Below are positions 3,232 through 58,883 of a DNA stretch of 64,000 nucleotides, one piece after another. The notes under the pieces are model-generated. The model made no database searches. It worked only from the letters and a program-made list of their open reading frames with translations, and was not told the DNA's origin. Both the position numbers and the translations under genes were made by a program. The stretch spans positions 39,680,001 through 39,744,000 of the forward strand of contig OZ024756.1 of NCBI GenBank assembly GCA_964016885.1. The letters are read 5' to 3'. Each line of letters starts with the position of its first letter. The stretch's first letter is position 1. The DNA comes from Eledone cirrhosa. Its lineage: Eukaryota.

Positions 3232-3296
3232 TATTTCATTATACATATTTCAAGGACACCAAGTTAAATTATGGTGTCCTTTCATCAGATAAAATA
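3232..3296 (-). ncRNA. Type I hammerhead ribozyme motif, family A
   Basis: tattttat-CTGATGA-aaggacacca/loop/tggtgtcctt-GAAA-tatgta-TA-atgaaata. 8-bp stem I, perfect 10-bp stem II, minimal stem III. Confidence 0.85.
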
Positions 3297-3452
3297 TAAT
3301 ATAGAGCAGTTTTATAAATGAATATTGACATACCCTTAAAGAATGCAACCTTTACTGTTGGAAGCTCCCGGATATATATATATATATATATATATATATA
3401 TATATATATATATATATATATATATATATATATATATATATATATATATATA

Positions 3453-3930
3453 TCGGAAGAACCGATATATCTGAATGCCTTGCTTCCCTGGGCATGAATA
3501 CATTGAAGCGCCGACGTCTGGCAACTGACTTGGTAAACACCCACAAAATGATTAACCATCATGCTAACAGCAACCTGAGTACCTTTTTGATTTCCATGTG
3601 TCTAACACACGTGGGCATGCCAACAAGGTCAGAAAACAGCACAGCTCCCATGACTTTCGGAAACATTTTTTTCACGCTCAGAATTGCTGAAGCATGGAAC
3701 AAACTCCCTGCATCAGTTGTTAGCTGTCCAGACACTGCATCCTTTAAAACCTCCATGCTTCCTGAGATTTACCAACACTAGACCTAATATTCCCCCTCTA
3801 TATACACGCACACATGTATATCATGACTCATACACTATTCACTTCCCTGACATTTGAACATTATTCTATGTACTATACATGCACCTTTGAGGAGTTGTAG
3901 TGCACCTGAGCACTGTACACAATAATTTCC
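3453..3930 (+). mobile_element. 3' end of a CR1-group LINE (ORF2 C-terminus plus 3' UTR), frameshifted
   Basis: TLKRRRLATDLVNTHKMI...FFTLRIAEAWNKLPASVVSCPDTASFKT matches the CR1 ORF2 C-terminal pattern. Confidence 0.8.
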
Positions 3931-4335
3931 TTATTTATCTTCTACCGTTTTCTCACTCAATGTTTTAATTAAGCCAGCATCATTAAGATGCCAACCAAAA
4001 AGGAAAATAGAGTGCACCCTTATACGTTAAATAGTAAGAGAAACGATTTCGTGGGAGTAGCGAATTTAATTCTCCATCCTCAGACTAAAACCACTATACA
4101 ATTGTAAATTAAATTCTATTGCGTATTAGTTAAAATAAAATTATAACTTCAGTGAAATAAACCTCAAGAAAAATATGTTTATTTGAAATGTCAAAACTGC
4201 TGCCATTTTGTATATAAGGGTTTTTGAAGGAAGTCACCCTCAAATATTTTTGTCATCAATCCTTATTATGTTTTATACCATTATTTTTAAGGCTTTATAC
4301 GAAACCTTTTCGGTTTTTCTCCATAATCGATAAAT

Positions 4336-4479
4336 CCAGCATAGTTACGTCCCTTTACGATCTGAGTTCAAATCCCGCCGAGGTTGACTTTGCCTTTCAT
4401 CCTTACGGGGTCGATAAAATAAAGTACCAGTAATGCACTGGGTGATTGCTGGCCTTGTGCCTAAAGTAGAAACAATTAT
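4336..4479 (+). mobile_element. tRNA-derived SINE, 5'-truncated (main family)
   Basis: B-box gagttcaaatcc, then core gcctttcatccttacggggtcgataaaataaagtaccag (resembles the Meta/MESC domain; assignment from memory). Confidence 0.85.
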
Positions 4480-4596
4480 TTTACATTGTAGCAAACACGA
4501 TTCTTATACTTGTTCGTTTGTGTGTGGATGTGTGTGTATCTTTGTTTGTGTACGTGTATGTCTGTATAGGTGTATGTCTTCTGTGTGCCTGTATCT

Positions 4597-5110
4597 TCTC
4601 TCTCTCTCACTTCTCTCTCTCTCTCTCTCTCTCTCTCTCTCTCTCTCTCTCTCTCTCTCTCTCTCTCTCTCTCTCTATCTATCTATCTCTATCTCTCTCT
4701 TTCTCTCCCTCTCTCTCTCTTTCTCTCTCTCTCTCTCTCTCTCTCTCATTCTTTCTCTCTCTCTCTTTCTTTTTTCTCTCTCTCTCTCTATCTATCTATC
4801 TATCTATCTCTCCTATCTCACTCTCTCTCACGGAATGTGTGTCTGTTTGTGTCTATTTATGTATTCCTGTGTGTGTGTGTGTGTGTGTGTGTGTGTGTGT
4901 GTGTGTGTGTGTGTGTGTGTGTGTGTGTGTGTATGGCTGTGTATGTATCTTTGTGTATATGCGTCTGCGTGTGTGTGTGTCTATGTATGTATCTGTGTGT
5001 GTATCTATGTATGTATCTCTGTATGTGTGACTGTGTATGTATCTCTGTGTCTACCACTATACGTCAGTACGTGTGTTTCGTTATATATATATATACATAT
5101 ATATATATAG
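4597..5110. repeat. Compound (CT)n/(GT)n/(TA)n microsatellite
   Basis: Directly visible. Part recurs inverted at about 5790-5880. Confidence 0.95.
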
Positions 5111-5524
5111 GTTACGATGTCTATATTCGGCATACATCTGTCGGCTGCTCCTTCCATTCTTTATATTAAGGTACAGTTGACATTAATGATTCCATTCCTC
5201 ATTTACTTCACAGAAACATCTTATAAACTTTATTGCTTCATTTATCTTGTCTCCTAAATATATGGAGAGTGTTCAGAAATTTAGCATACCATAAATCCAT
5301 ATACACTCGTATATATATATATATATATATATATATATATTTTATTTTTCCTTATTTTTCCTTATTTTTCCTTATTTTTCCTTATTTTTCCTTACTCTGA
5401 CTAACAACCCTATTATCTATCATCTCCATTCTCACTATTATCCTATGATCCTGTACCATATATCTATTGTTCTTATGATGTAGGTCGGTAGAGCTTATCT
5501 TCATTATTGTATTTTTGTTTTCAG

Positions 5525-5571
5525 CGCTCTGATGAGTCCTGCCCCATGGTATGGATGAAACACTGTCAGCG
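5525..5571 (+). ncRNA. Type I hammerhead ribozyme motif
   Basis: cgct-CTGATGA-gtcc tgcc ccat ggta t ggat-GAAA-cactg-TC-agcg with GUC triplet. AATAAA follows at 5572. Lies in a ~270-bp insert between TA runs. Confidence 0.88.
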
Positions 5572-56149: not shown

Positions 56150-56257
56150 AATTAAAGGCAATAGACATATTTATATATATATATATATGTGTGTGTGTGT
56201 GTGTGTGTGTGTGTGTGTGTGTGTGTGTGTGTGTGTGTGTGCGTTTAGTAATAATAA

Positions 56258-56335
56258 TTATGAATATTAAATCCAAAGATCCCGTAATAGGGTGAAAGCA
56301 GAGATTCTTTGTTTAAACTTTAATATGTACTAATA
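56258..56335 (+). mobile_element. Family B element
   Basis: aagatcccgtaatagggtGAAAgcagagattctttgtttaaactttaat. Confidence 0.55.
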
Positions 56336-56759
56336 ATATATATATATATATATATATATATATATATATATATATATATATATATATATATATATAATGA
56401 GAAGGTAAGCTATACTTGTCCATTATGCGGGAACACGGTAGTATTGATTGTGCCATAGCCAGGAAGACAGACAGACAGATAAATAGATAGATAGATAGAT
56501 AGATAGATAGATAGATAGATAGATAGATAGATAGATAGATTAGCGTAGTGGCGGGGACAGCATGCAGTTGGTGTGATGGTCAGGGAAATTGGTCAATTTG
56601 AAGTAAACATGCATGAAAACTTTCGCCATATAAGGGGACTTAAAACTCTGTCAAAAGCCGCAATCCTCTCAGAGTTAAGTCGTTCCAGAAGCTTTCACTC
56701 TAATTCTGCCAACAGAGCCAAATACATGAACATTAAAACCAGCCAACAGCTTTAGTAAT

Positions 56760-57137
56760 ATCATCAGCACAATCTCTTCCACCTTTATCACCATTATCAC
56801 TGATACCATCACCACCACCAGTAATACCACCACCACCACTACCATCACTAATACCATCACCACCACCACAGCTTCCACCACTACAACCTCCAACCACCAC
56901 TAATACCACCACTACCACCACTACCACCTCCCTGACCATCACTAATACCACCACCACCACAATACCCCCCACCACTACTACAGTTTCCCATACTACAATC
57001 CCCCCACCACCTTTAATACCATTACCCCTACCACAACTATAACTTAAGCAACCACCAATCCATTACGATTCTACCACCAACGCTTACTACTACCACTACC
57101 ACAAGCGCCTATACCATTACTACAGCTACTACCACCT
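56760..57137. repeat. Degenerate (ACC/ACT)n tract
   Basis: Directly visible. Similar (CAC)n tract at 58403-58545. Confidence 0.85.
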
Positions 57138-57166
57138 CAGCTCTCGTGTCATTAACCAGCAAGGAG

Positions 57167-57800
57167 AATTGGGATTTGCTGAATCGTTAGAGCGTCGGAT
57201 AAAATGTTTTGTGACATTTAGTTATGGCCCTTTATGTTCTGAGTTCAACTTCGGCCGAAGTCGATAAAATAAAGTAGCAGTTAAATACTGGGGTCGATAT
57301 AATTGACTTCTCTCCTCCTCCAAACATGTGCTGGCCTTCTGTCTATATTAGAAACCATTATATTTTTTTCCAGTGGATTGGCAGTATCAGTAGAGGGTCG
57401 GACGCCATGCTTTGACGCATAGAGTTACGGCCCTTGCCATTCTGAGTTCAAATCCCGCCGAGGTTAACTTTGCCTTTCATCCTTACGGAGTCGATAAAAT
57501 AAAGTACCAGTAATACACTGGGTAATTTGCTGGCATTGTGCCAAAAGTAGAAACAATTATATTTTTTTCCAGAGGGCGGTGAATTGGCAGAATCGGTAGA
57601 GGGTCGGACGCCTTGCTTAACAGCATAGAGTTACCCCCCCCCCCTTATGATCTGAGTTCAAATCCCGCCGAGGTTAACTTTGCCTTTCATTCTTACGGAG
57701 TCGATAAAATAAAGTACCAGTAATGCACTGGATCGATTTAATCGCCTTTCCCCTTCCCCAAAATTGCTGGCCTTGTGCCTAGATAAAAAAAAAGCATTAT
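57167..57800 (+). mobile_element. Cluster of three SINE copies
   Basis: About 57167-57360 (old), 57374-57560 and 57574-57800 (long-tail form). Confidence 0.88.
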
Positions 57801-58825
57801 TATATTTCTCAAGTTTTATACTTTCTATTTAATTTCTTTCACTCTCTCAGCTCCTCTTTCTTTCTTCCTTTCTGCCAGCCTCTTTCTCTATCTCTATATA
57901 TATCTGTCTATTTATCTATTTATCTATCTATCTATCTATCTATCTGTCTAATAAAGAAACATATCTATCTATCTGTCTGTCTATCTGTCGATCTACCTCC
58001 TTTATTATTTCTACGCCCTCCCTTCACGTTCTCTTTTTTTTTTTTTTTTCATTTCTTAGACACTAATTCTTCTTTCCCTCCTCCTAAAATAAAATTGGAC
58101 CGACTTTCTGTTTAGGTTATTAAAATTGAAAATTTAGAAAATTGAAAATTTTTTTCGTATTTTTGCTTGCAATATGGTGGCTTCTTTATGTTCTTCAAGT
58201 TTCCTGTGTATATTAAACTTGATAAAACAATTATTCGTTCCACCAGTGTTGCCCCATCAGGCTAAGGTTTTTTGAAAGTCATTCATAATCTCAAATCTGA
58301 AATTCTTCGGAAAAAAAACCCACTGCTAAATTTATCTTCCATAAACACATTATAAAAGTGTTCTTCCTGTCTATCTTAAACTGTAGCTAGGTCTTCACTA
58401 ACTCCACCACCACCACTACCACTACCACCAAAATCACCACCACCACCACCACCATCACCATCACCACCACCACCATCACCATCACCACCACCACCATCAC
58501 CATCACCACCACCACCACCACTATACCATTATCACCTTCACCAACTATTATTGGCTGGCTTACCAGAACCAGACGAATCTTAATATAATCAAAACAGTGG
58601 CTCCACTAGAAGTCAAGTACCTTCTACATAGTCTCTCTCTCCCTCTCTCTCCCTCTCTCTCTCTCTCTCTCTCTCTATAGATATATAGATATATATATAT
58701 ACATATATATATATATATGTATATATATATATGTGTGTGTGTGTGTGTGTGTGTGTGTGTATATATATAAATATATAATAAAATAACAGGAGGCTAGACT
58801 TGTGTAAATCCTTGAAAGGTTTATT

Positions 58826-58883
58826 ATACTATGATCATTTCAATGACCGGGTTCAGTATGAATCCGGTGATATCATCAGGTAT
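58826..58883 (-). ncRNA. Type I hammerhead ribozyme motif
   Basis: atac-CTGATGA-tatcaccggattca tac tgaacccggtcatt-GAAA-tgatca-TA-gtat, immediately followed by AATAAA. Confidence 0.78.

Follow-up and report, generated by a model that had tools for sequence, protein, structure and literature searches.

What kind of element has placed hammerhead ribozyme motifs beside the (TA)n microsatellites of the cephalopod Eledone cirrhosa? The stretch that raises this question, called the window here, comprises 64,000 nucleotides (assembly GCA_964016885.1, contig OZ024756.1, positions 39,680,001 to 39,744,000 of the forward strand). A first-pass annotation had listed 18 hammerhead sites in it, 11 as complete folds and 7 as variants, and had read them as several families of non-autonomous, ribozyme-bearing retroelements. 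Comparison with related copies elsewhere in the genome points to another source: most of the window motifs are very probably the 5'-truncated 3' ends, or pseudo-long terminal repeats (pLTRs), of Penelope-like elements (PLEs) of the Hydra clade and of a Neptune type.

Hammerhead motifs in the window

The window was scanned with two descriptors. The strict one (CUGANGA, GAAA, and Watson-Crick or GU stems) yields six folds, at 3232(-), 5525(+), 12651(+), 13900(-), 29635(-), and 42011(+), compared to 0.05 to 0.08 in dinucleotide shuffles (100 shuffles for each of two shuffle kinds). The broad one tolerates a mismatch at the stem II base, allows a stem II of up to 220 nt, and accepts CUGANGA, CCGANGA, or UUGANAA as the core and GAAA or GCAA as the second strand; it gives 18 matches, compared to a mean of 0.6 and a maximum of 4 in 20 block shuffles, so that the excess over shuffled sequence that had been proposed as a check is present. 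Sixteen of the 18 broad matches have homologs elsewhere in the genome, and 14 of these 16 carry GAAA. The other two, 14965(-) and 17005(-), are probably chance; together with the sites at 4047 and 58118, which likewise have no homolog among the collected loci, they were treated as chance and set aside. The family-supported matches satisfy the type I hammerhead core or its published U3-A8 variant, except the two matches of family W, which fail at A13.

All 18 of the sites listed earlier fall in repeat families with type I hammerhead folds. Ten of the 11 folds called complete are so, four of them (29499, 43315, 43904, and 58826) with stem II closed by a C.A or U.U pair that is typical of their family; the eleventh, 29335, has one substitution in stem III. 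The site at 43904 was first parsed as having no stem II and a long stem III, a parse dropped in favor of a U.U closing pair, a 3-bp stem II, and a 6-nt palindrome. The seven variant sites are real, since all belong to repeat families: the cores at 38682, 45306, and 45913 vary family-wide, and the families of 21335, 22520, 32704, and 49316 have intact cores, the copies themselves being damaged. The copy at 32704 is no separate insertion and forms part of a local inverted duplication of the 29635 region. To these sites we add an inverted hammerhead pair at 2747-2841(-)/2838-2979(+) and, from the 45306 family (V), some twelve half-hammerheads that are truncated at the 5' side.

The repeat-family comparison bears out the description of type I hammerheads with a palindromic stem III in several families; the density of about one motif per 4 kb in the window also holds, as does the presence of AATAAA behind many copies (3' of 12 of 19 entries, with both 45913 arms counted). 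In an Rfam scan of the window, no hammerhead family was among the best 150 of 214 matches, where the only matches were of microRNA models to TA palindromes.

Links to Penelope-like reading frames

The window motifs make up 15 families, designated A, B, C, D, E, E2, F, G, H, P, U, V, W, X, and Y. Genome searches with window copies, covering the families other than Y, returned 40 to 53 matches per query on many chromosomes, the best copies being 91 to 99% identical; first-look candidate sets held at least 57 to 2331 sequences per query. Elsewhere in the genome, 9 of the 15 families, which account for 13 of the 18 listed sites, are linked upstream to PLE frames, and the proposed connection with Penelope-like elements was therefore right.

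Six of these families (A, B, C, D, E, and V) are of the Hydra clade by their CxCX5C linker, an assignment made by comparing the motif pattern by eye with a published alignment; YxDD and endonuclease motifs are also present in Hydra-type loci. Family D is linked to a frame in 17 of 30 loci and family V in many of 30; family C is linked as well. Family E reaches a frame in 8 of 30 upstream loci, across a 3' untranslated region (UTR) of about 1.8 kb, and family B does so in two of four extended loci, across about 2.7 kb. In family A, 2 of 30 loci (L009 and L021/L061) show 1.47 to 1.5 kb of continuous homology that leads into a CxCX5C-bearing endonuclease. The link is direct for the 13900 type, and the 3232 and 29635 subfamilies are tied in by 74 to 85% identity. 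One family D locus, L366, has RWK, DKT, YRDD, and CxCX5C between two direct pLTRs. RWK and DKT were seen in family D only, the copies of A, B, C, E, and V being truncated or read less far.

Families U, W, and F lie downstream of frames that combine a reverse transcriptase (RT) with a GIY-YIG endonuclease at the C terminus. The linker CX4CxxC is found in L062, L063, L065, L068, and L074, and DKG in U and W loci; Pfam RVT_1 and GIY-YIG were matched in L062, L065, L068, and L074, with RVT_1 under its cutoff. We take these three families to be Neptune-type, a name that relies on their motifs. Locus L062 holds a full-length copy, in which direct repeats of 1.07 kb, 97.8% identical and each with a U hammerhead, flank a 938-codon frame; this is the full-length RT/GIY-YIG element sharing these pLTRs for which the first-pass annotation had suggested a search. 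Tandem (direct) pLTRs occur in L062, L074, and L366.

Some apparent links were rejected. The frames near G in L358 and near H in L354 and L355 own separate 3' ends and hammerheads, and the Neptune-type frames in L068, L069, L076, and L078 that had seemed to belong to B, C, and E were discarded as neighboring insertions after Hydra-type links had been found. The open reading frames of the window itself are simple-repeat frames and one scrap resembling a long interspersed nuclear element (LINE). In a content-blind sample of the genome (59 ten-kb stretches, 590 kb, at round coordinates on 27 large contigs), 17 of the 59 stretches contain a PLE frame fragment.

Junctions with TA repeats

Among 46 repeat-supported motifs of the sample, a set from which 13 singletons and the 11 members of a tandem array were excluded, 38 have (TA)4 within 150 nt on the 3' side and 12 have it on the 5' side; the proportion at random positions is 0.19. 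The association of hammerheads with TA microsatellites is thus real and one-sided. In the window, 15 of 19 entries fall in gaps of at most 500 bp between (TA)4 runs, or 14 of 19 given that 21335 has no 5' run within 1.5 kb; two further entries are in 514-bp gaps, and 29% of the non-TA bases fall in gaps of at most 500 bp. The earlier statement that nearly all copies lie in TA-bounded inserts of up to 500 bp stands for these 14.

Every family with enough copies has two 3' end positions, one about 15 to 130 nt past the cut site and the other 40 to 160 nt further. Both join TA runs, the modal 3' junction leads directly into TA in every family, and the element's own junction letters are TA-like in most. 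The 3' end is fixed among copies and the 5' ends vary: upstream homology extends over 36 to 1500 bp in B, 13 to 1500 bp in D, 15 to 1285 bp in H, and 0 to 621 bp in G (30 copies each), and an inverted arm is present in 8, 8, 16, and 9 of the 30 copies, respectively.

A Penelope/Poseidon-like element with a YVDD frame, a C-terminal endonuclease, and a hammerhead-like end and tail of its own was found at L354:3883-7582 and L355:3528-9696. It too joins TA runs, and so a third clade may share the target.

A motif behind the 3' junction

Of 217 tailed copies from families A, B, C, D, E, G, H, V, E2, and Y, 184 have the sequence RCUCY no more than 22 nt past the first end position, compared to 1 of 37 copies of the Neptune-type U and W and 6% of random positions, with the caveat that the motif was picked by eye after the tails had been viewed and that the families are related. 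A GAG-containing strand able to pair with it follows in 9 of the 10 families by pattern (D, 0 of 20), the pairing being predicted in some folds only. The motif suggests that G, H, E2, and Y may be moved by Hydra-type enzymes, and the fact that it is common to 10 families makes the enzyme's choice of start site testable.

Fold conservation and core variants

For family A we aligned 21 copies, chosen by sequence from 23 full-length matches (one second arm and one short match were left out). Pairing is retained in 93.3% of the cells and 21 cells are changed on both sides, values that none of 500 shuffles reaches; slid partners pair at 37 to 56%. In family V, core position 7 varies (A in 29 copies, C in 8, G in 3, and others in 2; n=42), and the other six letters are kept in 40 of 42. 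The sister families X and Y share their 3' half and swap C3-G8 for U3-A8 (8 and 3 copies, two of the three being the window arms). Self-dimer folds are predicted to pair through the stem III palindrome for 42011, 38682, 45913, 43904, 43315, and 29499; the predicted pairing is not clean for 13900, 5525, 12651, and 58826. For family V, a single molecule is predicted to adopt the whole three-way junction; together with its U3-A8 core, this would make the family a simple assay substrate.

The U3-A8 core is found in the Neptune-type U and W, in the Hydra-clade V, in family Y, and in the L139 array, and thus appears to have arisen more than once. It has been published as active, a C3-G8 or U3-A8 pair being needed for catalysis (PMC3088659), and is on record for Schistosoma PLEs (PMC4209133). 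Closing of stem II by U.U is likewise in print (PMC3088659; PMC8557442, File S2), and we dropped U3-A8, U.U closing, and the tail as novelties for this reason. The core CCGANGA (U4C) makes up 8 of 101 sample matches, in at least four families. Families with a short stem II in L085, L089, L097, L103, L113, L116, L124, and other loci have in common an A-rich loop (UAAUAA, UAACAA, or AAGAA-like), possibly a tertiary-contact loop.

Family W, a sister of U, has GCAA in 22 of 24 collected copies and GAAA in none, so that the A13 position departs from the hammerhead core. Its two subfamilies are about 15% apart, have a 3-bp stem I, and lie behind long RT-endonuclease frames. Several W loci are 100% identical to each other, and the family is therefore young. 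Four contig sets of unrecorded kind were compared at the A13 position; in the two that cover it deeply, no other letter exceeds 5%, although the best set may come from the assembly's own sample and so is not independent. A13 is needed for hammerhead cutting. Perreault et al. count it as core (PMC3088659); among the literature matches listed, none has A13C together with a hammerhead, and GCAA in place of GAAA was not found described. We read family W as a putative worn ribozyme in a family that still spread. The closely related U (GAAA) and W (GCAA) offer natural variants with which the necessity of the hammerhead can be tested.

Abundance in the genome

A middle descriptor gave 70 matches in the sample, compared to 5, 6, and 5 in shuffles, and the broad descriptor gave 101 to 102, compared to 3 and 5. 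Scaled to the genome of 3.0 Gb, after subtraction of the background and with a single count for the L113 array, these correspond to 277,000 motifs (bootstrap range, 178,000 to 390,000) and 443,000 motifs (321,000 to 578,000), respectively. The window, with 16 motifs per 64 kb, is at about 1.5 times the genome average and is no hotspot. Available portions of the published surveys give, with other descriptors, about 9,000 hammerheads in Xenopus tropicalis and 4,000 in coelacanth (PMC4209133), and more than 6,000 in a coral, about 5,000 in a mussel, and up to 120,000 retrozymes in axolotl (PMC7229834). Our estimate exceeds these counts of thousands to 120,000, bearing in mind that the descriptors differ. 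A 2026 repeat annotation of Octopus vulgaris counts Penelope-like elements, and neither "ribozyme" nor "hammerhead" occurs in its main text (PMC13282606); among the literature matches listed there is no genome-wide ribozyme survey of a cephalopod.

How the copies may arise, and competing explanations

The element's protein would bind a tandem or read-through transcript, its endonuclease would nick a TA repeat, and reverse transcription would begin behind the hammerhead, at either of two internal sites, copying mostly ending within a few hundred bases and often leaving an inverted arm. That the two end positions correspond to two RT start sites is suggested by the Poseidon element of the anole, for which the available part of the report shows two starts, an AT-rich nick, and protein-assisted hammerhead cutting (PMC11167929). 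Cutting of tandem precursor RNA by the hammerheads would be weak and would involve dimers joined by stem III pairing, with help from the element protein (PMC4209133, PMC11167929); dimer cutting through the palindrome has been shown, weakly, for a Schistosoma motif (PMC4209133). In the same account of the anole element, mutation of the hammerhead left in vitro insertion unaffected, and none of the RNA reads had its end at the cut site. Cutting is thus likely dispensable for insertion, which would explain the spread of family W with its changed core. A broader proposal, which we offer tentatively and regard as somewhat doubtful, is that this genome bears the densest known animal ribozyme load (several hundred thousand hammerheads, 1 per 6 to 10 kb) and that RCUCY, predicted to pair with a GAG-containing strand downstream, tells the RT in a clade-specific way where to start, loss of a hammerhead core base, as in W, not preventing spread.

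Several observations weigh against PLE ends inserted into TA runs as the source of the motifs. In the walks made, G, H, E2, P (within 1.25 kb upstream), and Y (without a genome search) were not tied to a frame, and X is tied by one locus only, L107, where a Hydra-type frame lies 1.5 kb upstream, a tentative link. A tblastn search with seven PLE frames found no frame fragment in the window, so that every window copy is a stub. The DKG and CX2-5CxxC pattern of U, W, and F, taken here as Neptune-type, also fits Nematis. Targeting of preexisting TA runs, which we assume, is taken from PMC8557442. In family A, two of five measures are not above shuffles: pairs with two-sided changes number 4, compared to a shuffle mean of 3.8 (311 of 500), and the 12 further pair types do not exceed shuffles; the pairing scheme, moreover, was taken from one member of a set of related copies. 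Stem covariation, another check suggested at the outset, is accordingly borne out in pairing and two-sided cells but not in the counts of changed pairs and pair types. Self-cleavage and transcription of these hammerheads are to be read as predictions; a search of sequencing runs listed no RNA data set as a match.

The families without a frame link leave room for dedicated non-autonomous elements, such as retrozymes or parasites resembling short interspersed nuclear elements (SINEs), that borrow Penelope-like enzymes; E2 copies have <190 bp in common upstream (10 loci), and true noncoding tandem hammerhead arrays exist elsewhere in the genome, in L113 and L139. We nevertheless think this improbable for the window. 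The frame links of 9 of 15 families and 13 of 18 sites speak against it, and B and E, which looked noncoding at 1.5 kb, were linked once 3' UTRs of 2.7 and 1.8 kb had been walked, so that a missing short-range link is weak evidence. No window copy is tandem, and the 5' ends vary. The label non-autonomous thus fails for nine families, which are truncated 3' ends of protein-coding elements, none of their window copies being a tandem retrozyme. A less remote alternative, though still an unlikely one, is that the folds persist as signals, either structural or for the binding of protein, or else are relics in decay, most of them not cutting RNA in the animal. It draws on the anole results cited above, on the poor stem I of family P, and on W, which is young yet has GCAA in nearly all copies and a 3-bp stem I; core letters are kept, on the other side, while position 7 and the stems drift, and the swap from C3-G8 to U3-A8 preserves the catalytically needed pair (PMC3088659).

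The elements might also create or lengthen the 3' TA runs instead of inserting into existing microsatellites, as the one-sided association and the TA-like junction letters of most families would allow. We consider this rather unlikely, given that both end positions and both arms of inverted insertions join TA runs and that (TA)n is listed as the insertion preference of almost all Hydra families (PMC8557442). Chance matches in AT-rich, repeat-rich DNA, finally, account for hardly anything beyond the two broad window matches without a homolog and a background of 3 to 6 matches per 590 kb of shuffled sequence: the shuffle controls in the window and in the sample (102 compared to 3 and 5) refute chance, and the families consist of dozens of near-identical copies across many chromosomes. 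Insertion of truncated PLE ends into TA repeats remains the reading that we adopt.

Features of the window and other repeats

The coordinates of the hammerhead features are collected in Table 1.

Table 1. Hammerhead-bearing features of the window, numbered from its first nucleotide
Feature	Position	Strand	Remarks
Family Y hammerhead	2747-2841	-	U3-A8 core, shortened stem II; left arm of inverted pair, palindrome 2702-3024
Family Y hammerhead	2838-2979	+	U3-A8, long stem II, 8-nt palindromic stem III; right arm, carries tail; homolog in L206 at 97%
Family A (Hydra clade) hammerhead, complete	3232-3296	-	Subfamily 74-85% identical to other window copies
Family B (Hydra clade) hammerhead, complete	5525-5571	+	4-bp stem I; ~2.7-kb 3' UTR
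Family V, two half-hammerheads	10163-10273		3' half only, 5'-truncated, inverted to each other
Further family V halves	10452-10528, 12996-13111, 29830-29938, 32462-32498, 34648-34764, 45515-45591, 53095-53151
Family D (Hydra clade) hammerhead, complete	12651-12762	+	Long stem II; then 160-nt tail
Family A (Hydra clade) hammerhead, complete	13900-13960	-
Family X hammerhead	21335-21488	+	Very long stem II, C3-G8 core; copy without A15.1; sister of family Y
Family P minimal hammerhead	22515-22560	-	Copy has changed G5; family core intact, 4-nt palindromic stem III, poor stem I
Family A hammerhead, damaged	29335-29395	-	Single stem III substitution; with tail
Family G hammerhead	29499-29558	-	C.A closes stem II (family-typical), 9-nt stem III; Hydra-type tail motif; no frame link
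Family A hammerhead, complete	29635-29695	-
Copy of 29635 hammerhead in local inverted duplication	32704-32764	+	A14 changed
Family U (Neptune-type) minimal hammerhead	38680-38719	+	U3-A8 core, 6-nt palindromic stem III
Family C (Hydra clade) hammerhead, complete	42011-42081	+
Family E (Hydra clade) hammerhead	43314-43411	-	C.A closes stem II, tail; ~1.8-kb 3' UTR; 5'-truncated inverted arm 43459-43575(+)
Family F (Neptune-type) minimal hammerhead	43903-43943	-	U.U closing, 3-bp stem II with GAAA loop, 6-nt palindromic stem III
Family V (Hydra clade) hammerhead	45305-45400	+	U3-A8, 5-bp stem III with palindromic loop, GUC site; predicted monomer three-way junction
Family W (Neptune-type) hammerhead	45856-45894	-	U3-A8, GCAA replaces GAAA; left arm of palindrome 45688-46118
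Family W hammerhead, right arm	45912-45950	+	U3-A8, GCAA, 3-bp stem I
Family E2 hammerhead, damaged	49324-49413	-	G5 and stem III changed; family form intact, GUC site; Hydra-type tail motif; no frame link
Family H hammerhead	58825-58884	-	U.U closes stem II, 4-bp stem I; ~1.3 kb noncoding homology upstream; Hydra-type tail motif; no frame link

The local inverted duplication (29578-30804/31099-32821) has arms of about 1.2 kb that are 93 to 95% identical; an inverted pair of family U tails (30977-31096) lies at its center, and flanking DNA with other elements is duplicated too. Near-perfect long palindromes, some of them TA-centered, occur at 48515-48909, 51862-52061, and 10219-10506, the first with three arms that are 99 to 100% identical and no hammerhead match. 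A SINE-like family of about 185 bp is present at 6267-6450 and 32 further places (17 of 33 matches are at least 150 bp, and some are head-to-tail pairs); it has a stretch resembling a tRNA B box, as judged by eye, and no hammerhead. Tandem arrays are found at 27964-28807 (28-bp units), 36458-37961 (about 87 bp), and 62019-62941 (80 bp). The segment at 3456-3781, directly behind a TA run, resembles the C-terminal end of a LINE reverse transcriptase frame.

Tandem noncoding hammerhead units, absent from the window copies, were seen only in L113 and L139. At L113:243-3389 (contig C3, from 190000001), 11 tandem units of 309 to 311 bp each carry the same type I hammerhead; the array has a TA run at one end and an assembly gap at the other and is non-LTR retrozyme-like. 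At L139:1-2431 (contig C4, from 250000001), three identical 592-bp tandem units and an inverted arm end in TA; the units have a U3-A8 hammerhead with a 10-nt palindromic stem III and a homolog in L107, and represent a young noncoding retrozyme-like family.

Comparison with known systems

The comparisons below refer to the available portions of the cited papers. Non-LTR retrozymes share with the present motifs type I hammerheads in noncoding repeats (PMC7229834; Li et al., bioRxiv 10.64898/2026.07.22.740005), and the L113 and L139 arrays fit them. Retrozymes are tandem noncoding units, however (PMC7229834), whereas the stubs in the window occur singly or inverted and derive mostly from coding elements. 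The Poseidon element PAc of Anolis carolinensis resembles the families here in its two tail-separated 3' ends, AT-rich target, and pLTR hammerhead; it belongs to another clade, its start region overlaps the beginning of the frame and is an AC-rich stem-loop, and an RCUCY-type motif, present in 10 families here, is not mentioned for it in that portion of its description (PMC11167929).

The minimal hammerheads of metazoan PLEs are similar to those here in occurring as many families per genome, mostly as single truncated copies, with opposite-strand pairs, palindromic stem III, and U3-A8 cores (about 1,300 matches in Schistosoma mansoni); they cleave weakly as dimers, and their counts run to thousands (PMC4209133), compared to the 280,000 to 440,000 estimated here with a different descriptor. 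Families U, W, and F agree with the Neptune clade in the DKG RT, CX2-5CxxC, C-terminal GIY-YIG, tandem hammerhead pLTRs, and microsatellite bias, and they depart from it as described in the U3-A8 core of U and W and the GCAA of W (PMC8557442).

In the Hydra clade, defined by Craig et al. in 2021, almost all families insert into (TA)n (PMC8557442). Its CxCX5C, C-terminal GIY-YIG, and hammerhead near the 3' end recur in the window families (RWK and DKT in family D), as do its (TA)n junctions, inverted 5'-truncated arms, and optional tail, and File S2 already contains U.U or other mismatches closing stem II. Files S1 and S2 of that work list Hydra-1_Obim of Octopus bimaculoides with a (TA)n preference and a hammerhead, so the suggestion that no such element had been described for cephalopods does not hold. 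Craig et al. curated one Octopus family, compared to at least six linked families in one 64-kb window here; their elements are generally <3 kb in whole, and the 3' UTRs here alone measure 0.6 to 2.7 kb; tails are 40 to 160 nt here and 30 to 40 bp there; and no row of File S2 has the U3-A8 core of family V. Element type, hammerhead, and TA preference are thus already known, and the families described here are new members of the Hydra and Neptune-type PLEs. What they add is modest: their scale, a family with GCAA, and the motif shared behind the junction.

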